A stretch of DNA of 64,000 nucleotides, taken from the sequence record NC_007023.1; one strand, 5' to 3'. The first letter of the stretch is position 1. Each line of letters begins with the position of its first letter. Shown piece after piece: positions 3,161-58,044 of this stretch. The position numbers and the translations under genes are program-made. The stretch comes from Escherichia phage RB43. Under the pieces are notes generated by a model. The model was not told the DNA's origin and ran no database searches. It saw only the letters and a program-made list of their open reading frames with translations.

Positions 3161-3394
3161 TCACTTGTTGAAAATAATGTTTTCGCATGAATACTTTGTC
3201 GGTTTCTTGTCGATACCGTATTCAAGCGGTGTACACATACGATCCATATAATCGTAAATTTCTTGTTTTCGTTTTTCTTCCTTTTTCATTTCAAGGATAC
3301 CAAAAACGATAGCAGTCACAAAACACATAGCGATAGTTGAAAGAATAACGATAGCTACATATTTTGATGTGTTTGGTGCGCTGTATGGTCTCAT
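3161..3394 (-). CDS. small membrane protein (hypothetical)
   Basis: 77-aa ORF with hydrophobic helix VAIVILSTIAMCFVTAIVFGIL; ATG overlaps upstream stop (ATGA). Confidence 0.4.
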   Translation of the reverse strand: MRPYSAPNTSKYVAIVILSTIAMCFVTAIVFGILEMKKEEKRKQEIYDYMDRMCTPLEYGIDKKPTKYSCENIIFNK

Positions 3395-3933
3395 TGTAAC
3401 ACCTTTGCAAATTCCTGTGAAGTCAGTTTACGGGCAACTAAACGCCCTTTTGTTGATGCTTTATGGCCTACCATATACATCGTTGAAATGTTGCGCTTTC
3501 CTGATTGAATCTCATTATACATCTTTTCAGGCATGGTTGATTGATAAACTTCACCGTTTGATGTTTTCAGGAACATCGCGTAAACATGGTCATCTTTCTT
3601 TTCGATGATTTCTTTTTCACGAACACGAACCTTAGATGATGTTGGTTTAGCACCCAATTCAATAGCCTTTCTTTGCCATGCAGGTCCGTGTCCAGCACCA
3701 TAACCAACAAGGGCATGTGCGATTTCGTGCATAAGAGTATCTAAAATGCACTCGTAGGTATCTTCTTCAACATGTTTCCGGCGTAACTGGATCTCTCTTT
3801 TGGAGTAACTGCAACAACCCAGAGTAGTTTTCAAACGTCCATTAATTTTGAATGACCAATCAGACAAACCATGTTTAGCCATGATGCTTTTGGCCCAAAG
3901 AATAATTTCCATGTCACTACGAGTTTTGAACAT
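3391..3933 (-). CDS. SprT-like zinc metalloprotease domain protein
   Basis: HExxH motif (MHEIAHAL) plus Cys cluster; start MFKTRSD with AGGAGGA 6 nt upstream. Confidence 0.6.
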   Translation of the reverse strand: MFKTRSDMEIILWAKSIMAKHGLSDWSFKINGRLKTTLGCCSYSKREIQLRRKHVEEDTYECILDTLMHEIAHALVGYGAGHGPAWQRKAIELGAKPTSSKVRVREKEIIEKKDDHVYAMFLKTSNGEVYQSTMPEKMYNEIQSGKRNISTMYMVGHKASTKGRLVARKLTSQEFAKVLQ

Positions 3934-4005
3934 TTTACATCCTCCTAATCGGTAGCGGGAGTAATATAACAAAAAAGCCCCTGCATCGCAAGGGCTTAAT
4001 GTAAA

Positions 4006-5296
4006 TTATTTCAATTTCTTCGAAAGTTCTTTCAAATCATTGAGATATTCAATTTTCGGGGTTGTCTCTTCCCAGTATTTCAGTTGCTTGCGCAATTCAT
4101 TTGCTTCATCTTCCAGCTTTTGACGTTCGTCAGTAGTTAGATGATAGGATGTTCATCGCAACCAGTATTTCGGCGTGGTTTTCGCAACCCTTCCATGTTG
4201 ATACGAATTGAACCGCTTCACTACGACTCAAGCCCTTCAACGAGTCAGGAGATTCAATCATCTGGTCGATAAATTCAACCTTAGCCAGCGCCCTTGCAAG
4301 TGCTTCCTTCGCTTCCTGTATGCGTTTTTCGATGCGCTGTTGATAAACCGTCATACGGATATCAACGAAATCTTTCAACAACGTTTCAGGACGTTCATAT
4401 GAATGCAACTTACCATTGAAGATAACGTTGATGTTCGGGTTTGAGTTCTCAATCAATCCAAAATCTTTCAGGATCTTTTCATGGGTAAGCCCGTTGGCAT
4501 ACTCACGTTTAAGGGTTATCTCATAGCGAAAATCTTCTTTCGATAGATCCTTATAGCTTACGATACACCCTTTCTCTTCCAGCTTATCCAGAATCGCAAT
4601 ATATTTCACGCGATCATACTTGACCGGAATCTCAGTGATCACCAGTTTAGTTTTACCCTGGAGTTCGTACTTACCGTACATTGTCCCGTCTACAATGTCA
4701 CCTTTAAATTGTGGATATTTCAGGTCAAGCGTGAAATCTTTCCCGTTCAGGTAACTAACACATCCATTCAGAACCGAAACCGGATCATGTGGTGGAATGT
4801 TTGTCGCGTATCCTTTCGCGATCCCTCTGAACCCGTTAACCAACACCATAGGAATGATTGGCAGATAATAGGCTGGCGGTAGGTGTTCAGGATCTTCATG
4901 CGGGATTGTTAAATCTTCGTCCATGTAGATAGCCTTGAACAGCGGAGACAGCTTACAGTAAATGTAACGAGGTGCGCCAGGCTTCTTAACCAGACGGGAA
5001 CCAAAGAACCCATCACGATCGAAAAGCGGGATATTATTGCACCAGTGCGCCGCCATGAGAGACAACGCTTCTTCAACGGATGTTTCCCCGTGGTGATACC
5101 CGTATATTGCAACACCGCCAGCAATAGATGCTACTTTCTGGAAGCCTGAACCTCCTTTCGCTGCTGAATGCACGAAGAAACGGTGAACGGGTTTGAACCC
5201 GTCTACCAGGTGCGGGATAGCACGAGAATAAATTGTGTAAAGGGCAAACGTAAGCCCTTCAACCTGTACAACGTCTTTAATACTTCTTTCCATCAT
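4006..5296 (-). CDS. 52: DNA topoisomerase II medium (GyrA-like) subunit gp52, reading frame broken near 4133-4152
   Basis: N-term AIPHLVDGFKPVHRF GyrA signature; 388-aa ORF 4130..5296 ends prematurely and a coding-like +1 frame (DERQKLEDEANELRKQ...KKLK) continues to TAA at 4008..4006. Confidence 0.7.
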
Positions 5297-7185
5297 TTCA
5301 CCGAAAATTTATGTTTTCCGTCAACCCAGTCTTTACGCGGATCGGACTCTTCACCGAAACACAGTTCCAGAACGTCTTTGTAATCGTCGCCCAGTACGAT
5401 TGTATCGTATTTTAACTGGTCGCCCAACACGCGATCGTAATCTGATTTACGCAAAGAACCCAGACCTTTGATGTATCGTACCTCTTTCGCTTTGTCGCGG
5501 AAAGGTACAAAATCGTCCATAGAGTAGAACCATTTTTCATCTTTTCCGATTTTAGCAATGATAATCGGTGTACGGATATACCGGATCTTTTTCTTCTCGA
5601 ACAACTCAGGCCAACGACTAAAGAACGCAATCAGTAGGGTGAGAATATCGCCCCCGTCAACGTCCGCATCCACCATGATCCCGATATTGTCGTATGCCAT
5701 TTCGGAAGAGTCGCCTGGATGGAGATTCAGGATCGCCATTAACTCGAATAACTCTTTGTTTTTGAGAATGTCGGTAAAGCTCATTCCCCAGGTGTTCAAC
5801 GGTTTGCCACGTAGCGGAAATGCGCCTTGTGTCTCTTCGTTTCTGCACTCGATAAACTGCCCTACAGCGGAATCACCTTCGGTCAGAAACAAAGTGGTTT
5901 CGACTCCATCGGTATCAATCCCTGATGCGGGAACATGTTTTGCAATCTTCGCCTTTTTCGCTTTCTTTTTCGCTTTCGTAATTGCTGCGGCTTCTGCTGC
6001 TTGCTTGCGAATAAGAGCGGATTCAATGATCGGAGTGATTATTTCAGAAGTATCCATAATCTGCTTCGCGATCTTTTTGTAATTCAATCCGGCGTGATTG
6101 TTGAACTCTCCAGCAGTATTGGTCAGTTTTTCTTTCGTCTGACTGTCAAAAGCTGGTGCATTGAAGTTATGCAAAAACACGACCAAAGTCAAGCATTCTT
6201 TTACACGGGCTTTCGGGATCTCGATAGCGTGTTTCTTCTTGATCATCGGTTCCAGTTCGGCATAGATACCATCAATCATACAATCGACGTGTACGCCACC
6301 GTTTTTTGTGTCCAGACCGTTGACGAATGATTTTTGTTTGAATCCGTCTTCTGTGCTCGCCAGGATGAAACTAATTTTGTTGTTTGTCTGCGTGATTGTG
6401 CTGTCGCCATACATCGCGCCATACATCGCAAACTTATTCGGTAATGTTTCACCGTTGTATGTGAATTTAACCGAAGGGAACGCCACTGCAAGCGCCATAA
6501 GGCGATCTTTGATGACTTCCTTTGTTTCTTCGTCGATGCCATCAACACCGAAGATTGAGAAATCAGGGGTAAACTTAACAGTGGTTCCCTGTTCTTTCGT
6601 CGGGCTTGTACGGTAATCCATGTTCTGTGCGCCGTCAGTACAGTTGATCGTGACTTTGCGCTTACCGTTGGATGTTTCACCGATAAAGATTGAACTGTAA
6701 CAGTTCGTCAGGAAAGAACCTACACCGTTCATCCCCATTGTTACGCGGTTTTCATCATCGAAGTTTGAACCAGATTTTGCCATAGTCCAGGCTGCAACAG
6801 GTTTAGGAACAATTTTCCCTTCTGGTGTTCTCACGTCATCTTGTGGAATACCGCGCCCGTTATCTGAGATTGTCACCAGATTATGATCAATCTTCACTTC
6901 GATTCTGTTCGCGAATTTAAAATCTGTACGGATCGCTTCGTCGATTGAGTTGTCGAGAATTTCATTGATGATTTTCACCAGACCTTCGACATATTCCACT
7001 TTGCGGAATTTACCCATGATGAAGCGTTCGTGTGCTTCGCGGTTCACTGAACCCACATACATGTTAGGACGTTTGCGAATGTGATCGCGGTCACTCAGGC
7101 AGAAAGATTCATCAACCTTTACGCCTTTTGGCGTTTCCGGTACTTTCTGCGGTTCGTCTTCGTCCATTAAGAAATCTAAACTCAT
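5293..7185 (-). CDS. 39: DNA topoisomerase II large (GyrB-like) subunit, gp39 and gp60 equivalents in one ORF
   Basis: GHKL ATPase motifs (ILDNSIDEA, ISDNGRGIP) and Toprim motif (TEGDSA) in one 630-aa protein; ATG at 7185 after AAAGAGGTG. Confidence 0.85.
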   Translation of the reverse strand: MSLDFLMDEDEPQKVPETPKGVKVDESFCLSDRDHIRKRPNMYVGSVNREAHERFIMGKFRKVEYVEGLVKIINEILDNSIDEAIRTDFKFANRIEVKIDHNLVTISDNGRGIPQDDVRTPEGKIVPKPVAAWTMAKSGSNFDDENRVTMGMNGVGSFLTNCYSSIFIGETSNGKRKVTINCTDGAQNMDYRTSPTKEQGTTVKFTPDFSIFGVDGIDEETKEVIKDRLMALAVAFPSVKFTYNGETLPNKFAMYGAMYGDSTITQTNNKISFILASTEDGFKQKSFVNGLDTKNGGVHVDCMIDGIYAELEPMIKKKHAIEIPKARVKECLTLVVFLHNFNAPAFDSQTKEKLTNTAGEFNNHAGLNYKKIAKQIMDTSEIITPIIESALIRKQAAEAAAITKAKKKAKKAKIAKHVPASGIDTDGVETTLFLTEGDSAVGQFIECRNEETQGAFPLRGKPLNTWGMSFTDILKNKELFELMAILNLHPGDSSEMAYDNIGIMVDADVDGGDILTLLIAFFSRWPELFEKKKIRYIRTPIIIAKIGKDEKWFYSMDDFVPFRDKAKEVRYIKGLGSLRKSDYDRVLGDQLKYDTIVLGDDYKDVLELCFGEESDPRKDWVDGKHKFSVK

Positions 7186-7230
7186 ATTCACCTCTTTATT
7201 AGTTCAGTCATTATATAGGGTTCTATGAAA

Positions 7231-10461: not shown

Positions 10462-10686
10462 TCAAGAATTCGAACATAAATCAACCTGTTTTCCCTGATA
10501 CCATTTCGGGAATGTAACCTTTTCAATCAAGATCCGCGCCAGGTTGTAACTGTCACCGAAGAGAAGAACCCCGAACAATGGGTCTTTTTTAATATCACCC
10601 TTACCGACTGTTCTCATATGCCCTTGATGAATCACGGTGTCGCCCACCGTGATATCTTTGATACTGACTTTTGTTACATGATACAT
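10462..10686 (-). CDS. hypothetical protein (74 aa)
   Basis: ORF track only. Confidence 0.3.
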   Translation of the reverse strand: MYHVTKVSIKDITVGDTVIHQGHMRTVGKGDIKKDPLFGVLLFGDSYNLARILIEKVTFPKWYQGKQVDLCSNS

Positions 10687-10835
10687 ACGATAACCTCAGC
10701 GAGTTTAGCAGGTTTTGCTTCTGGTCTGATTTTCAGAGCATCATTTAAATTGTTTTCAACCATCGCTACTGCGTCTTTTTCGTTGAACCCGTTTTTAACC
10801 AGGGCTTTAACTACTTTGGCTTCTAAGTTTTTCAT
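10674..10835 (-). CDS. hypothetical small protein (53 aa)
   Basis: ATG (MKNLEAKVV) directly after conserved leader ...CGAAACGAAACAGACAAAGGAACGCATC. Confidence 0.4.
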   Translation of the reverse strand: MKNLEAKVVKALVKNGFNEKDAVAMVENNLNDALKIRPEAKPAKLAEVIVCIM

Positions 10836-10871
10836 GATGCGTTCCTTTGTCTGTTTCGTTTCGATGTGTGT

Positions 10872-10900
10872 AATATACTGCATATCGAAATTCGGGTCAA
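10872..10900 (-). promoter_or_regulatory. sigma70-like promoter (TTGACC-N17-TATATT) with conserved leader
   Basis: Read on minus strand; followed by TACACACATCGAAACGAAACAG leader. Confidence 0.5.
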
Positions 10901-10908
10901 TACCCAAA

Positions 10909-11394
10909 TCAAAGAAAATCGTATTTTTCTTTTAATTTTTCGTAATACGTACCCCATGCGGCTTCGTCGTTAATGATCTCAGTACCGAACCGATAAGCAC
11001 GTTTTCGCAGTTCGAAACGTTCACGGATACGCTCAACATTGATTTTCACTGATTCCGGCGTGGGTTTCCAGTCTGCACAAAGATGACGATGAAACAAGGA
11101 GTTTAACAACGGACTAAGATCGAAATCTTCATATGTTCCGTCCATGTATTCTTTACCATTACGTGCGAGGTATTCAGCACGTAATGCAGCATGACGATCG
11201 CGAAGGTATCCCAGCTTATTGTAAAAGAAGGTTACGTGTCCAGTTCCCAGCGTATACACAGCAGGTATTTTAGACAGGTTGATTTTTGCCTTACCGGATA
11301 AAACGGCATTGGGAATGCGCGGGAGTTCGCGGAGTTCTGCGATCAGGTGTTCGTTCAGCAGAAGAGAAGGATCGATTGTGTTAATACGTGTCAT
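10909..11394 (-). CDS. denV: pyrimidine dimer DNA glycosylase (endonuclease V)
   Basis: MTRIN... N-terminus and GHVTFFYNKL motif resemble T4 DenV; GGAGG SD. Confidence 0.8.
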   Translation of the reverse strand: MTRINTIDPSLLLNEHLIAELRELPRIPNAVLSGKAKINLSKIPAVYTLGTGHVTFFYNKLGYLRDRHAALRAEYLARNGKEYMDGTYEDFDLSPLLNSLFHRHLCADWKPTPESVKINVERIRERFELRKRAYRFGTEIINDEAAWGTYYEKLKEKYDFL

Positions 11395-11422
11395 AATTGC
11401 CTCCGTTTGTGTATGTGCGTAA

Positions 11423-11460
11423 TATACAAAAAAGCCCCCTGCATTGCAAGAGGCTTCTTT
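11423..11460 (-). terminator. terminator hairpin of the GCCC-TGCA/TGCA-GGGC family with embedded -35 and downstream TATATT
   Basis: Minus strand AAGCCTCTTGCAATGCAGGGGGCTTTTTTGTATATT. Confidence 0.5.
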
Positions 11461-11474
11461 AGCAAAAAGTGCTA

Positions 11475-11771
11475 TTATCTCAATAGTCGTTTACGAATAC
11501 CGCCATCACGGGTTTGGTCGTAAATCGCTTTTGCTTCTACTATTGTCTTTTTCAGTGTATGGCTTTCCCCGTGTCCGGTAAAATAGAACTCAACGAACCC
11601 TTCGTAAAGGTTTACATGGGTCGTCACACCTTCACCACGGAAGTGTTTCACAAACTGGCGCGTATTATACTTAAACCAATCATGGGCTTCCCCGTGTCTG
11701 TATAAGGAGTGGATCACAAATGCACCACCAACACTAATCAGAATAAGGCCAATTACTATAAGAGCGTTCAT
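11475..11771 (-). CDS. membrane protein (98 aa, hypothetical)
   Basis: N-terminal TM helix ALIVIGLILISVGGAFVI. Confidence 0.45.
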   Translation of the reverse strand: MNALIVIGLILISVGGAFVIHSLYRHGEAHDWFKYNTRQFVKHFRGEGVTTHVNLYEGFVEFYFTGHGESHTLKKTIVEAKAIYDQTRDGGIRKRLLR

Positions 11772-12197: not shown

Positions 12198-12479
12198 TTA
12201 TAATTCTGTCATTTGGGGAAGTTTCAGAACCATACCAGGAAGAATATGACTGGCATTCTTAACTGTATCTCGATTCAGCTTTGCGATGGTGCGCCAGCGT
12301 TCACCGCATCCATACAGATTATACGCAATAGAATACATTGTATCGCCAGGCTGAACGATGTATTCACCATATTCAGTTGTAATTAAAGCAGGGTTCATTA
12401 CTCGATCGAACATCTGTACTTTTGCTTCATCCAATGTTTTAGCACGTACAGATATACCAGCAAATGTTAATTTGATCAT
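12198..12479 (-). CDS. LysM domain protein
   Basis: YIVQPGDTMYSIAYNLYG...ILPGMVLKLP LysM pattern; GAGGAA SD; ATGA overlap with dexA stop. Confidence 0.6.
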   Translation of the reverse strand: MIKLTFAGISVRAKTLDEAKVQMFDRVMNPALITTEYGEYIVQPGDTMYSIAYNLYGCGERWRTIAKLNRDTVKNASHILPGMVLKLPQMTEL

Positions 12480-13150
12480 CGTTTCCTCGGAAAACTAAGT
12501 TCGTCAGTTTCTTCTTCGGTCGGCGGTTCTTCCAACCCCATTGCATAACGCATAGCATAGATTAGCATCAACGCATCTTTTGCGCAATCGTGAATTGAGT
12601 TGTGCATCACAAAACCATTCAAAATACCTTTACGCAGAGGACAGGTAGAAGCCCCACGGGTTAACAGTCGGTTTTCAATGGCTGTACGCACATCACGGCT
12701 ATTCCAGAACACGGTCGGCATATCATCAAAGATATCAACCTTCCCTGTCATCTTGCGCACCACGTCAACCAGGATACCGCGATCGAACTCAGGGCCACGA
12801 ACATAATCGAGTGATTGCCAACGGCTTACACCATCTGCTTTCAAGTCCTCGAAAAACTGTTTATGCCCTTCGTACAGGTCTATATCATCAGGCGAAGGTT
12901 TCAGAATAACACGGGCTTCTTCGCTTTGCTGTTTCCACCAATCGGATCGTTGATTTGTCTGCAATGCGATCTGGTTGCTTACGCAAATCAAATTTATACT
13001 TTTTACCGGCGGTGACACCAGTTCTTCGAACGTTGGCGGGTTGTGCGGATCATCGATAAACGGAACGTAAGACAGTTCGACGATTTTACCGTTTGGTGAT
13101 GGTCCTACAGTTTCGTAGTCCCATACATAATCAACGTAAAGATGCGTCAT
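12476..13150 (-). CDS. dexA: exonuclease A (DnaQ-like DEDDh 3'-5' exonuclease)
   Basis: DxE motif (VWDYETVG) and H-x4-D (HDCAKD); sits next to dda as in T4. Confidence 0.7.
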   Translation of the reverse strand: MTHLYVDYVWDYETVGPSPNGKIVELSYVPFIDDPHNPPTFEELVSPPVKSINLICVSNQIALQTNQRSDWWKQQSEEARVILKPSPDDIDLYEGHKQFFEDLKADGVSRWQSLDYVRGPEFDRGILVDVVRKMTGKVDIFDDMPTVFWNSRDVRTAIENRLLTRGASTCPLRKGILNGFVMHNSIHDCAKDALMLIYAMRYAMGLEEPPTEEETDELSFPRKR

Positions 13151-13775: not shown

Positions 13776-15107
13776 CTATACATAATCAACGGTATAACGT
13801 GCGCGGGTAACGCCCACGTAGATTAATTGTTTACACAGGTCGTAATCAGCGAAAGCGTAAGCATCGCGTGTGTACATGTAAGCATGGTCATACGTGCTTC
13901 CCTGTGCTTTATGGTACGTACAAACAGGAAGAGGCTTAACGTCCTGAAACTTGTTTTTAATCGCCCAGAATGAATGCCACGGGGCTTTATAACCTGTCTG
14001 CTGCTTGATGCGCTTATAGTTGCTCGCGACATAAGCCAGATAGTTCCCCAGACGTTCTTTCATCACCGGATCAACAACAACCTGAATCTGTGCTTCCTGT
14101 TCTTCTTCTAAGGATACCGTTTTCAAAAGGTAATAGTCAATAGAAATTTTCTCGTCGCACTTTTCAGCCTTAATGACTTCGGTTCGCGGGACAATTTCAA
14201 GAACACGAATCTTTTCGTTGTTGTTGTAAATGATCTCGGTGAATATCTGCCCGTTTAAACGCATTTCCTGAACTAACGGTTCCTGCATCACGATCACTTC
14301 ATCGAGAATAAAAGGTTGCGTTGTTTTGTACAGGTGTTTTCGGATCGTTGCGTTCAGTTTGTCTACGTTGTCGTTGGTGTAGGCAAACATACGGTTTTCC
14401 ATCAGGTCATCAGGCGTTTTCACACGACGAAAATACTGTTTCAGGAAGTCTACAGCGTTCGCATGTTGGAATACGCCCATATCCCCGACCGACATCGGTT
14501 TAAGCATCTTACCATCGCGTACAGCGCGTGAAACCTGAATGATTGGGTTTCCTTCTGCCTGTCGCATGATTTTATCAAGACGAATAACGTCAAAGATTTC
14601 TTCATCAAAGAATGGTGATAGTTCGGTTCGTCCATCAGCATTCACCGGACGGATCTGATCTTTGTCACCCAATCCCAGAATAACCGCATGGCTGGGAATA
14701 GTTCGCTTAATGATGCGAAACATTTCGTGATCAACCATCGATACTTCTTCAACAACAAACACACGACATTCAGACAAATCAGGCGCTTTTTTACCGCGTT
14801 GTTGTTCGAATACGCGGATCTCTTCATTAGTCACAGGGCTAATTTTCAAAGCAGAATGAATCGTCGTTGCATCCATACCTGTAGCCGCTGCGAGTACGTT
14901 TTTAGCCTGGTGCGTCGGGGCTGTTAACCACAACCCGCTAATCCCCATACTTTTTAGGGTTTCGAAGATAAACTTCACCAGCGTAGTTTTACCAACACCA
15001 GGGCCACCCGTGATTGTGGTATGCACCTTGTTTTGAATGTTTTTAATTACTCGATCATGACCTTTCTTCTGGTCATCACTCAGATCATCAAATGTTAACT
15101 CGTTCAT
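13776..15107 (-). CDS. dda: Dda DNA helicase (SF1)
   Basis: Walker A GGPGVGKTT; overall colinear with T4 Dda; 443 aa. Confidence 0.9.
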   Translation of the reverse strand: MNELTFDDLSDDQKKGHDRVIKNIQNKVHTTITGGPGVGKTTLVKFIFETLKSMGISGLWLTAPTHQAKNVLAAATGMDATTIHSALKISPVTNEEIRVFEQQRGKKAPDLSECRVFVVEEVSMVDHEMFRIIKRTIPSHAVILGLGDKDQIRPVNADGRTELSPFFDEEIFDVIRLDKIMRQAEGNPIIQVSRAVRDGKMLKPMSVGDMGVFQHANAVDFLKQYFRRVKTPDDLMENRMFAYTNDNVDKLNATIRKHLYKTTQPFILDEVIVMQEPLVQEMRLNGQIFTEIIYNNNEKIRVLEIVPRTEVIKAEKCDEKISIDYYLLKTVSLEEEQEAQIQVVVDPVMKERLGNYLAYVASNYKRIKQQTGYKAPWHSFWAIKNKFQDVKPLPVCTYHKAQGSTYDHAYMYTRDAYAFADYDLCKQLIYVGVTRARYTVDYV

Positions 15108-55586: not shown

Positions 55587-56181
55587 TATTGACGGGATCG
55601 CCGTAAAATGGCAGTCGGGGTTGCCGTTCTTTTTGTCTAAACACAATATGCCTACTGATATTGCTCTGGACATGGTCACCGATGAAAGATTTCGTGATAT
55701 GACCGAAATATTCGGGTGTGATCACCAACTGGCTAAAATCCTGATGGAAGAATATAACAACAGTTCGTTTATTCGCTATCTAAGCGCGTATGACGATGCG
55801 TTAGTTGTGATCAACCGTCTGAAAGCCAAATATGATTTCGTCGCTGTCACGGCGCTGGGAACCACTCCTACGGCAAGTCTGAACCGTATTGCAAACCTGA
55901 ACACATTGTTCCCGTCTGCATTTCGTGAAGTGATGGTCGTCGGGCATGGTGAAACAAAAACACATCGTTACCTGGAAGCGAAAGCCAAATACGGATCGCG
56001 GTTGGTTTGCTTTGTTGATGACCTTGCGGTAAACTTAAACGAGTGTCATAACGTTATCAGTCAGTTGCCGTTATTTCACATGTTGCGTGGTGAACGTGAA
56101 CAACCAAATGTTCCGCACAGTATCGTAAAATCATGGTTTGAAATTGAAGAGAAATTAGATGATCTTATCAATATTGAATGA
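55552..56181 (+). CDS. HAD-superfamily hydrolase (possible 5'(3')-deoxyribonucleotidase)
   Basis: Motif I ILTDIDGI, motif IV CFVDDL; start overlaps HNH gene 3' end. Confidence 0.5.
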   Translation: MSTNAKPVILTDIDGIAVKWQSGLPFFLSKHNMPTDIALDMVTDERFRDMTEIFGCDHQLAKILMEEYNNSSFIRYLSAYDDALVVINRLKAKYDFVAVTALGTTPTASLNRIANLNTLFPSAFREVMVVGHGETKTHRYLEAKAKYGSRLVCFVDDLAVNLNECHNVISQLPLFHMLRGEREQPNVPHSIVKSWFEIEEKLDDLINIE

Positions 56182-57682
56182 ACTTGCATCGACTCTGAAA
56201 ACCTCAGAGAAGGAAGCAATTTTAAAACGTAATGCAAACAACCTATTGTTGAAAGAGATTTTCCGAATTACGTACACAAAACAGATTATGTTCTATGTGC
56301 GTAAGTTTCCCCAGGTGGACGGCAAACCAGGAACAACCCCGCTATCAAATGCAATCGCGGACCTGATGTCCGATTTAGCATCGCGGAAGTATACAGGTAA
56401 TGCAGCCCGCGATCGCCTGATGGATATTGTGTCATCAGTAAACGAGAACGATCGCGAAGTGTTGCGCCGTATCATTAACCGCGATCTTGAATGTGGTGCG
56501 GGTACAACTCTGCCAAACCGCGTATGGAAGAAACTTATTCCAGAACAGCCTCAATGCCTCGCTACGCCGTTTAGTGAAAAAGCCTTAAAACGTATTCGCT
56601 TCCCTGCTTACTCTCAGCTTAAAGCCGATGGTGCGCGTTGTATGTCGGATCTGTTAGAAGACCAGATTCGCAAAGCAACCCGCGCTGGAAATGAGTATAC
56701 AGGTTTGGTTGATCTGGATAAGGATTTGAAAAAGATCCGCGAATATCTGGGTTATGATGTTGTGCTGGATGGAGAATTGATTTATGTCCCTACTGAAAAA
56801 GCTGTTATCGAACCTGCAAGCGGGATTCCTTTTAGTCTTGCTGGGTTTATGGATGATGACGACGATGATATTTCTGGTCTTGTGGCAGATGTTCGACGGG
56901 AAACTACCGAGAACGAAACACTGGAAGAAGCGAAACGCGAAGAGGGCAACGGGATTGTAAACAAATCCCTGAAAGGCACTATTAGCGACGAAGAACAGCG
57001 CAACATTGTATATGTTGTCTGGGACATCATACCGTATGAAGTTTATTATGGCGATGCTCCGAGTGTTCAACCGTATTGCGATCGTTTGTCTATCCTGGAT
57101 GGTGCTCTGGCTGGTTCTGGGGTATCGTGTGTTAAGTTAATCCCTTCTCGCGTTGTGTATAACATTGCAGAAGCAAAACTGGATTACAACAACTATCGAA
57201 ATGACGGTAAAGAGGGTTCTATCCTGAAAAATACCGATTTCGTCTGGAAGGATTCACGCGTTGCGGACCAGGTTAAGTTGAAGAACAAAACCCCGATTGA
57301 ACTACGGATCATCGACGTATACGCGCATACCAAAGAACCCCATAAAGTAGGTGGTTTTGTGGTTGAAGACTTATCAGGCGAAGCCAGGACAAACACAGGT
57401 TCCGGTCTGACTGATACAGACTACCGCTATGATGAAGATGGTATTACGCGTGTGTATATCCCGTTAGAAGAACGCGGAGAACTGGATCGCGAATACATCA
57501 TGGCGAACAAAGATGACTATATCGGCGCTATCGTCGAAATGGAAGTTGACGGACTCCAGAAGTCTAAGACGCGTAAGAAGGGCGAACCTGAATACAGTTT
57601 CTTCTTACCAATCATCAAGAAGATTCGACGCGACAAGACCGAACCGGATGACATTCACGTTATCTTTGCAGATTTGTTTTAA
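56159..57682 (+). CDS. 30: ATP-dependent DNA ligase
   Basis: MILSILNELAS N-term, KADGAR adenylation motif, colinear with T4 ligase. Confidence 0.9.
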   Translation: MILSILNELASTLKTSEKEAILKRNANNLLLKEIFRITYTKQIMFYVRKFPQVDGKPGTTPLSNAIADLMSDLASRKYTGNAARDRLMDIVSSVNENDREVLRRIINRDLECGAGTTLPNRVWKKLIPEQPQCLATPFSEKALKRIRFPAYSQLKADGARCMSDLLEDQIRKATRAGNEYTGLVDLDKDLKKIREYLGYDVVLDGELIYVPTEKAVIEPASGIPFSLAGFMDDDDDDISGLVADVRRETTENETLEEAKREEGNGIVNKSLKGTISDEEQRNIVYVVWDIIPYEVYYGDAPSVQPYCDRLSILDGALAGSGVSCVKLIPSRVVYNIAEAKLDYNNYRNDGKEGSILKNTDFVWKDSRVADQVKLKNKTPIELRIIDVYAHTKEPHKVGGFVVEDLSGEARTNTGSGLTDTDYRYDEDGITRVYIPLEERGELDREYIMANKDDYIGAIVEMEVDGLQKSKTRKKGEPEYSFFLPIIKKIRRDKTEPDDIHVIFADLF

Positions 57683-57700
57683 ATAGCACTTTTTGTTAAA

Positions 57701-57737
57701 GAAGCCCCTTGCGTAAGTGAGGGGCTTTTGTTATTGT
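57701..57737 (+). terminator. terminator hairpin (GCCCCTTGCG...GGGGC) with embedded -35 TTGCGT and -10 TATTGT 17 bp later
   Basis: GAAGCCCCTTGCGTAAGTGAGGGGCTTTTGTTATTGT. Confidence 0.55.
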
Positions 57738-57774
57738 ACACACATCGAAACGAAACAGACAAAAGGAACATCCC

Positions 57775-58044
57775 ATGAACATCAATAAAGAACTCGAAGG
57801 CAAAGTAATCAACCTGGCAGACCGTGCGCGGTTTGAAAAGCTGGCTAATGGTGGTGAATCTCTGGGTGATGCAGTAGCATTATTCGAAAGACTTCGTGTT
57901 AAACGTGTTGTAGATGGCTGGGTTATCGCTCTCCCTGTTGCAGACGAAGACAAAGCGGTTTACGATCCTGTTGCCGATTCATGGGATATTGAAATCTGTC
58001 TGGTTAATATTGAAGTAGAACTTTGCTTCGAGGAAGAAAAATAA
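57775..58044 (+). CDS. hypothetical protein (89 aa)
   Basis: ATG preceded by conserved leader ACACACATCGAAACGAAACAGACAAAAGGAACATCCC. Confidence 0.5.
   Translation: MNINKELEGKVINLADRARFEKLANGGESLGDAVALFERLRVKRVVDGWVIALPVADEDKAVYDPVADSWDIEICLVNIEVELCFEEEK

Follow-up and report, generated by a model that had tools for sequence, protein, structure and literature searches.

A denV gene between the topoisomerase genes and dexA of phage RB43: a single-gene presence/absence cassette with the probable hallmarks of promoter-stem-loop shuffling

Escherichia phage RB43 carries a denV gene of the T4 endonuclease V family within a 549-bp cassette that is bounded by a short direct repeat, is present in a set of closely related genomes and is precisely missing from others. 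The combined evidence makes it likely that the gene specifies a working DenV-type enzyme, that the cassette is shuffled by recombination between promoter-early stem-loop (PeSL) elements, and that its unusual position reflects insertion of a separate denV lineage and not relocation of the T4 gene. The analysis covered 64,000 nucleotides of the RB43 genome (sequence record NC_007023.1), hereafter the window, together with sequence records of related phages.

The DenV protein and its gene neighbourhood

The denV coding sequence (positions 10909-11394, minus strand) starts with ATG and specifies 161 amino acids. Pfam, the PDB, PHROG and a structural model identify its product as a long-form DenV-type pyrimidine-dimer DNA glycosylase/AP lyase. 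It matched the Pfam family Pyr_excise (PF03013; E 2.7e-11, 44.1 bits versus a cut-off of 23), PHROG 1183 ('endonuclease V N-glycosylase UV repair enzyme', E 4.6e-45) and the T4 endonuclease V structure 2END (E 7.6e-16, residues 1-136 versus 1-131, about 37% identity), and it is the single DenV-like locus in the whole window. In T4 endonuclease V the N-terminal amine of Thr2 is the nucleophile, Glu23 is catalytic and arginines bind DNA. The RB43 protein begins with MTRIN..., followed by ...ELRELPR, and its Arg3, Arg22 and Arg26 align with residues of T4 DenV. Across 53 aligned homologues the invariant positions were M1, T2, R3, N5, E23, R26, H53, F57, R67, E74, R78 and R122, a set that includes both the nucleophile and the catalytic glutamate; R22, conserved in at least 90% of them, was nearly invariant.

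An AlphaFold2 model built on the same 53-sequence alignment (pLDDT 93.7, pTM 0.87) adopts the all-alpha endonuclease V fold. When the model was searched against the PDB, the sole significant matches were four T4 endonuclease V entries (TM 0.87 by target length and 0.75 by query length, rmsd 2.3 Å); in the model, the 23 or so additional residues at the C-terminus fold into a beta-hairpin plus a helix. The earlier note on this DNA had called the gene a clear denV homologue, and family, residues and fold all bear this out. Given these matches and the model, we predict with high confidence that the protein is a functional pyrimidine-dimer glycosylase/AP lyase. Such an enzyme would recognise cyclobutane pyrimidine dimers, would cut the glycosyl bond with Thr2 (through its free alpha-amino group) as nucleophile and Glu23 as acid, and would then nick the abasic site, providing the phage with UV repair of its own.

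The minus strand carries every gene from position 1 to about 33 kb of the window. Pfam matches and the annotation of near-identical records gave the order rIIA, a SprT-like gene (3391-3972), a gp52-type topoisomerase gene (4130-5296), the gp39+60-type gene for the topoisomerase II large subunit (5293-7191, with DNA_gyraseB, HATPase_c and Toprim matches), about ten small open reading frames, denV, four small open reading frames of which one encodes a LysM protein (12198-12479), dexA for exonuclease A (12476-13150; Pfam Rv2179c-like, PHROG 255), two further frames and dda (13776-15107). The placement of denV between the topoisomerase genes and dexA, as originally noted, is therefore confirmed by reading frames, Pfam and annotation, and the gp39+60 and dexA genes mark the two borders of a variable interval.

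The neighbours of denV within this interval are small reading frames of unknown function. Upstream lies a 98-aa gene (11475-11771, minus strand; phrog_6661, function unknown), whose stop codon precedes the regulatory element described below. Downstream lies a 53-aa gene (10674-10835, minus strand; phrog_9411, function unknown), which in relatives without denV comes directly after the terminator/promoter element. A longer, 77-aa reading of this frame (10674-10907), which would abut denV, was set aside, since RB16, Margaery, GAP161 and KP27 all have homologues of 162 nt, which fits the 53-aa reading. We also rejected mobility driven by a homing endonuclease in RB43: a PHROG scan of the reading frames on both sides of denV, 10462 up to dexA, gave no HNH or GIY-YIG match.

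Over 7.2 kb around denV the DNA shares 99.9% identity with the Pseudotevenvirus RB43 record HE981739 and 98-99% with CfP1, Miller and Xman, three phages of Citrobacter. HE981739, CfP1 and Miller served for comparison, and every RB43-type record has just one DenV-like place. Note that many public Pseudotevenvirus records already annotate the gene between 39 and dexA as endonuclease V.

Cassette borders and flanking regulatory sequences

Alignment of RB43 and CfP1 with IME-CF2 and RB16 revealed a single clean gap of 549 bp at about 10880-11428. The presence/absence cassette delimited by this alignment, by the junctions and by an empty-site search (10880-11428, minus strand) comprises denV, its 5' untranslated region with the Shine-Dalgarno sequence, and 30 nt of 3' sequence with a -35 box; its exact ends are ambiguous inside the flanking repeat. 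This direct repeat of 15 bp has an upstream copy GTATATTACGCACAT (11413-11427, minus strand), which holds the -10 box TATATT, and a downstream copy GTATATTACACACAT (10864-10878, minus strand), which holds the promoter-like -10 box of the next gene. The window has two copies of the 15-mer GTATATTAC[G/A]CACAT and no others.

On the coding strand, the order 5' of denV is stop - AGCACTTTTTGCTAAAGA - AGCCTCTTGCAATGCAGGGGGCTTTTTT - GTATATTACGCACAT - ACACAAACGGAGGCAATT - ATG(denV). Immediately past the stop of the upstream gene comes the repeated motif AGCACTTTTTGCTAAAGA (11456-11473, minus strand), itself a small hairpin, and folding and a terminator scan placed a terminator-type hairpin at 11429-11459 (minus strand) with a 14-bp stem that ends in a T-run (-22.8 kcal/mol, z -4.6, with 0/200 shuffles as good). 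A sigma-70-like promoter-like site, TTGCAA-17-TATATT (11421-11449, minus strand; 9/12 consensus matches), overlaps this structure, its -35-like TTGCAA (11449-11444) lying within the loop and 3' arm of the hairpin, and GGAGG and then the ATG of denV follow downstream. The order 3' of the gene is TGA - TTTGGGTATTGACCCGAATTTCGATATGCA - GTATATTACACACAT - CGAAACGAAACAGACAAAGGAACGCATC - ATG (53-aa gene). Consensus matching and junction comparison revealed a second sigma-70-like promoter-like site here, TTGACC-17-TATATT (10872-10900, minus strand), which takes its -35 from the cassette and its -10 from the repeat. Folding found no hairpin downstream of denV (z -1.65), so that just one flank constitutes a complete PeSL.

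Promoter-like hexamer pairs between 7 and 16 kb numbered 16, against 19.0 +/- 5.8 in shuffled sequences. Since such pairs are not enriched, the promoter role rests on position, repetition and analogy, and we treat the promoter and terminator activities of the flanking elements as putative. At the hairpin ahead of denV, the records of CfP1 and Margaery show a terminator, and that of KP27 labels the counterpart element a 'middle promoter' that overlaps a terminator. Judged by eye, the motif TTTTTGCTAAAG, when taken as a MotA box of a middle promoter, has a spacing to TATATT unlike that of T4 middle promoters.

The element is itself repeated. The AGCACTTTTTGCTAAAGA motif has three copies in the window versus 0.08 expected, and motif search and folding identified a near-identical regulatory copy of about 90 nt (57685-57774, plus strand) with motif, hairpin, -10 region and 5' untranslated region ACACACATCGAAACGAAACAGACAAAAGGAAC. 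This copy lies just past the ligase gene, ahead of an unrelated 89-aa gene, and its hairpin reaches -22.4 kcal/mol (z -5.3). Composites of hairpin, T-run and -10 box numbered 7 in the window versus 0.7 in shuffles; others lie at 3997-3963 and 12194-12167.

From this arrangement we propose that denV behaves as an autonomous single-gene cassette within the hyperplastic stretch that separates 39+60 from dexA. The gene, standing directly after a strong terminator hairpin, would be transcribed from its own sigma-70-like promoter, which overlaps that hairpin, and the second promoter-like site after denV would serve the next gene. Both sites share the 15-bp repeat at their -10 boxes, and recombination inside the repeat could insert or excise the exact 549-bp denV unit, an event equivalent to PeSL shuffling.

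Presence, absence and exchange among relatives

By tblastn, 41 records contain RB43-type DenV (identity of 93% or higher); all are Pseudotevenvirus genomes of 175-180 kb, and no match fell at 60-90% identity. The gene occupies the dexA-side interval in every denV-positive Pseudotevenvirus record examined for which annotation was shown. Empty sites were sought with a 240-bp probe spanning the junction of IME-CF2. The probe matched as one unbroken piece in IME-CF2, RB16, Lw1 and GuL6, and it crossed the junction in GAP161, leE, leN, Invicta, Cronuts, JC03, EC-W1, YI837, EcRAM-01, KP13MC5-1, phi1_146010, PhiK2046, R2_1 and the Slopekvirus KP27. Empty sites thus occur in at least 14 phages, and the exact border of the indel is the regulatory element. 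Genes flanking the empty site of IME-CF2 are 99-100% identical to those of RB43, and searching the whole RB16 genome with six DenV types as queries found no DenV homologue (best E 0.68).

The empty sites of GAP161, IME-CF2, RB16 and KP27 read hairpin-TTTT-GT(T)ATATTACACACAT-CGAAACG...-ATG (53-aa gene), the very sequence that a crossover within the 15-bp repeat should leave. The junction itself does not reveal whether any given phage gained or lost the gene. The suggestion of the earlier note that the gene is 'modular' was well founded: it is a single-gene, repeat-bounded indel cassette of 549 bp that 41 records have and close relatives precisely lack.

Sequence divergence also points to exchange. 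Between RB43 and Margaery, denV is 93.2% identical at the DNA level while dexA, the LysM gene and orf74 are 74-80% identical, and the gene upstream of denV in Margaery is altogether different from that of RB43. At third codon positions the identity is 87% for denV, compared with 58% for dexA, 53% for the LysM gene, 55% for orf74 and 68% for the 53-aa gene. This low synonymous divergence is not accounted for by selection on the protein and indicates that the cassette was exchanged among species of the genus far later than their backbones diverged. First and second codon positions of denV are 96-97% identical versus 87% for the third, a contrast that indicates purifying selection.

A large protein database contains intermediates (P0003-P0005) with 57-63% identity to RB43 DenV. 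One of them, P0004, is the DenV of L011, a 176-kb metagenomic contig related to RB43 with the order 41 ... 61 - 56 ... dda - orf - dexA - orf - denV - small ORFs - motB.2-like x2 - 39.2-like - topoisomerase x2 - SprT - rIIA. The placement between 39 and dexA is consequently common to a clearly more distant member of the RB43 lineage (Dda 73%, DexA 60% and DenV 60% identical to RB43), whose DenV has diverged in step with the neighbouring genes. Both flanks of denV in L011 carry near-identical CCCTTGACGAAAGTC(C/G)(G/A)GGG(C)TTTT(T)GTATTATAT elements (stem-loop/TTGACG/TATTAT).

The T4 position is a different one. In the T4 GT7 record the order is tk - vs - regB - vs.x - denV - ipII - ipIII - (e) - nudE, with vs.7 as the immediate neighbour of denV on the side opposite ipII, so the statement in the earlier note that T4 denV lies near ipII/e was correct. 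The RB43 gene does not occupy this e/ip - denV - vs - regB - tk location and is not a positional orthologue of T4 denV. Phage Miller, 98% identical to RB43 in the denV region and with an identical DenV, retains a T4-collinear block (rI - tk - small ORFs - vs - vs.1-like - ... - PhoH - endolysin - ... - nudix hydrolase - ... - 57B - 57A - 1 - 3 - 2 - 4 - 53 - 5) in which local tblastn with six DenV types found no denV, and RB16 has the same block. The T4-type slot therefore exists in RB43-type genomes and is unoccupied. CC31 (Karamvirus) and Potts1 (Marfavirus) have denV in the T4 slot; Aeromonas phage ZHF (Tulanevirus) has it between genes 61 and 56; and in the 255-kb Vibrio phage K567, presumably KVP40-like to judge by its size and an NMN-adenylyltransferase neighbour, it lies within a stretch rich in reading frames.

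Origin of the placement and comparison with known systems

RB43 DenV is 37-39% identical to the proteins of T4, CC31 and Potts1, 36% to that of ZHF and 33% to that of K567. Identity rises to 50% with DenV of Vibrio phage 11895-B1 and to 54% over the alignment (58% by BLASTP) with P0007, which is encoded on a 143-kb contig related to enterobacterial myoviruses of the rV5/phiTE/Hena1 type. A neighbour-joining tree of 76 DenV sequences (132 columns, 500 bootstraps, numpy implementation) grouped RB43 with P0001-5 at 94% support and, with P0006-14 added, at 89%. Together with Vibrio phage proteins these form a 'long-form' clade (80%) whose members have 146-170 aa, with one outlier of 274 aa, and share a C-terminal extension that the T4 type lacks. 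T4, CC31 and Potts1 form a separate clade with 100% support, and all deeper nodes fall below 50%. A split placing RB43 on the side of the phiTE-like and Vibrio types, with T4, ZHF and K567 on the other, was present in 98.6% of the bootstraps; a split uniting RB43 and T4 without the others appeared in 6.4%, a figure that is uninformative on unrooted splits. RB43 DenV was not recovered as the sister group of T4-type DenV in these bootstraps, in which the deep nodes are weak. The four DenV types of T4-like phages share 27-38% mutual identity and do not form a clade. Membership of RB43 DenV in the longer-form clade suggests that its position differs from that in T4 because a different denV lineage entered a different variable region. 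For the variable regions of T4-like genomes as a group, the simplest reading is that denV entered several times, or that other alleles replaced it.

This bears directly on the 'rearrangement' that the earlier note had read into the gene order, namely that in the RB43 lineage an ancestral T4-type denV left the e/ip/vs region for the 39-dexA region, diverging afterwards. We consider such a move unlikely. The proteins of T4 and RB43 are homologous and each gene sits in a variable region of a T4-like genome, and the tk-vs ... nudE block persists without denV, as a move would leave it. However, RB43 DenV is far closer to DenVs of phages that are not T4-like (50-60% identity) than to those of the T4 slot, it shares with the former a C-terminal extension foreign to the T4 type, and both the long-form clade and the near-constant bootstrap separation from T4, ZHF and K567 argue for a distinct lineage. 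Since the protein is short and the neighbour-joining tree draws on 132 columns only, with deep branches below 50%, divergence from one old T4-like denV retains a small share of probability. Insertion of a separate lineage is also preferred over the converse proposal, very improbable in our judgement, that a denV in the early-replication region is the original T4-like arrangement and that the T4 position by ipII is derived. That the divergent 176-kb relative has denV in the same 39-dexA interval, and that ZHF has it only a few kb away between 61 and 56, would be in keeping with such antiquity; the ZHF slot is nonetheless a different one and its protein only 36% identical, T4, CC31 and Potts1 share the e-denV-vs slot, and the four DenV types within Straboviridae are not a clade. 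The test named in the earlier note, that relatives might show the same placement as an ancestral arrangement, came out on both sides: the placement is shared within the RB43 lineage (Pseudotevenvirus and L011) but does not extend to either sister genus: in Slopekvirus, KP27 has a precise empty site, and in Krischvirus, RB49 reads 39 - orf - 39.2 - dexA with nothing more in between and no room for the gene.

A further objection would be that denV no longer encodes an active enzyme, or that a DenV-like protein was co-opted for some other function, so that its placement says nothing on repair. The C-terminus is 23 aa longer than that of T4 DenV, and the gene is evidently dispensable, as RB16 lacks it wholly. 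Yet the reading frame is full-length, every catalytic and DNA-binding residue is kept (the nearly invariant R22 included), the fold model is confident, the protein is conserved at 93% identity or more across 41 genomes, and the codon-position contrast reflects purifying selection. We find this objection scarcely credible.

More speculative, and on balance doubtful, is an extension of the preferred reading in which the long-form denV would be an actively circulating cassette of the mini-circle type that crosses, at microhomologies in promoter -10 regions, between unrelated phage families with hosts or habitats in common (RB43-like Straboviridae, rV5/phiTE-like myoviruses and marine Vibrio phages). 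If it were true, UV-repair capacity would be an often traded, environment-dependent trait and not a lineage character.

PeSL elements have been described from RB49/phi1, T4/PST and KVP40/nt-1, where shuffling was documented (Arbiol et al. 2010, PMC2839356; Comeau et al. 2014, PMC4122927). The stem-loops in these reports occur in hyperplastic regions, where they overlap the -35 and -10 boxes or lie between them, and by recombining, two PeSLs insert, delete or swap the enclosed reading frame, sometimes via mini-circles (PMC2839356, PMC4122927). Neither paper mentions denV; PeSL-like sequences of RB43 are mentioned only near gene 43 in the former (Arbiol et al. 2010, PMC2839356), and RB43 and RB16 are absent from the latter (Comeau et al. 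2014, PMC4122927). Literature searches on the denV (endonuclease V) gene of RB43 turned up no discussion of where it lies. Plasticity of hyperplastic regions and PeSL shuffling are thus already published, and denV is an ordinary example of them whose significance beyond bookkeeping is small. What it adds is a well-delimited illustration in which the function of the gene is known: the empty site is exact, a 15-bp repeat lies at the -10 boxes, and synonymous divergence is far below that of the flanks. Because UV sensitivity is easy to score, the cassette would be a convenient test case for PeSL exchange.

At denV the features that mark a PeSL are found as a composite of stem-loop and -35/-10 boxes, as repeated copies and as an exact indel border. 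Like published PeSLs, the element is intergenic and runs from an upstream stop codon through a stable stem-loop and sigma-70-like -35/-10 boxes to a Shine-Dalgarno sequence and start codon; it resembles in particular the published sub-class in which the stem-loop overlaps the -35 box and spacer, and it shares with PeSLs their occurrence as genomic repeats, their setting in a hyperplastic region and their coincidence with exact indel borders between close relatives. It differs in belonging to another sequence family (AGCACTTTTTGCTAAAGA + AAGCCYCTTGC...GGGGCTTTT + GTATATTAC) and in having a hairpin on the upstream flank only. The internal-protein (IP) locus adjoining T4 denV offers a second parallel, since it too consists of variable, shuffled accessory genes of T-even genomes, although locus and genes are others; polymorphism of the IP locus is cited by the PeSL authors as an earlier case of like plasticity (Repoila et al. 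1994, as quoted in PMC4122927).

For the enzyme itself, T4 endonuclease V (DenV; PDB 2END, 1VAS, 2FCC) shares with the RB43 protein the PF03013 family, the all-alpha fold, the MTRIN motif and Thr2, Arg3, Arg22, Glu23 and Arg26. It differs in length (138 aa versus 161 aa, the RB43 protein having an additional C-terminal beta-hairpin and helix), in sequence (37% identity, separate clade) and in genomic slot (vs-denV-ipII versus 39-dexA). The closer counterparts are the long-form DenVs of Vibrio phage 11895-B1 and its relatives and of the rV5/phiTE-like contigs, which match RB43 DenV in identity (50-58% across almost the entire protein), in length (154-164 aa) and in the C-terminal extension, whereas their carriers are not T4-like and surround the gene with unrelated flanking genes and regulatory sequences.

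A second copy of the denV-site regulatory cassette

A regulatory cassette of approximately 90 nt at 57673-57777 (+) repeats near-verbatim the element of the denV site when compared with the segments at 10836-10878 and 11413-11473 (-). The copy consists of a AGCACTTTTTGTTAAAGA motif, a hairpin, a -10 region, and a 5' untranslated region, ACACACATCGAAACGAAACAGACAAAAGGAAC, and is located 3' of the ligase gene (56159-57682) and 5' of an unrelated 89-amino acid gene (57775-58044). The loop of its hairpin is that of the IME-CF2 version of the denV-site element and not that of the RB43 version. For the homologous composites of hairpin and -10 region in KP27 (L016, 3615-3648 and 4366-4398), the annotation places a 'putative middle promoter' over a 'terminator', so these elements may act in either early or middle mode.

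Genes flanking denV

The start of the gene downstream of denV was called mechanically as a TTG, giving an ORF of 77 amino acids at 10674-10907 (-), and the annotation of CfP1 extends the gene to 210 nt, with a start that falls within the -10 box. Both versions were rejected as too long. Since the homologues in RB16, Margaery, GAP161, and KP27 all measure 162 nt, we place the start at the ATG at 10835, which yields a protein of 53 amino acids.

Near dexA, whose stop it overlaps, a gene at 12198-12479 (-) encodes a LysM-domain protein of 93 amino acids that carries the RefSeq label 'tail protein'. This gene is present in IME-CF2, GAP161, Margaery, and KP27 and missing in RB16, and is therefore a further presence/absence gene of the interval that holds denV. 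The RB16 genome (L019-L022) has many annotated HNH or homing endonuclease genes within or between core genes. The annotated positions fall between two genes (47 and 46, nrdA and nrdB, 2 and 4), ahead of 30, 6, and nrdD, and after 46 and 23.

The topoisomerase-rIIA side and the strand switch

A gene for a SprT-like metalloprotease-domain protein (3391-3972, -; PF10263, E = 2.1e-13) lies between rIIA and the topoisomerase genes, and a SprT-like protein is also encoded in the 176-kb metagenomic relative (L011, 14817-15365). The gp52-type topoisomerase subunit (4130-5296, -) directly adjoins a fused gp39+60 subunit (5293-7191, -). In T4, genes 52 and 39 are presumably far apart and gene 60 stands as a gene of its own; in that case, the adjacency seen here is a bigger departure from T4 synteny than denV itself.

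Elsewhere in the window, GC skew and AT skew both change sign near 32-33 kb (about 31-34 kb), where the lowest G+C (0.39) is also found and where genes switch from the minus to the plus strand, with rnh leftward and gene 55 rightward according to the CfP1 annotation.

denV slots in T4-like genomes

Aeromonas phages of the Tulanevirus type carry a further type of DenV, exemplified by ZHF, which is 36% identical to RB43 DenV and has an insertion after residue ~45. The ZHF gene (L009, 4001-4462) resides between the primase gene 61 and gene 56, a third denV slot in T4-like genomes. In the T4-collinear block of RB43-type phages that runs from tk and vs to nudE, a PhoH-like gene occupies the position that regB, vs.x, denV, and the ip genes hold in T4. 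For the endolysin of this block (Miller, L017 25104-25499; RB16, L019 27125-27520), the annotation gives a D-alanyl-D-alanine carboxypeptidase type rather than an e-type lysozyme like that of T4.
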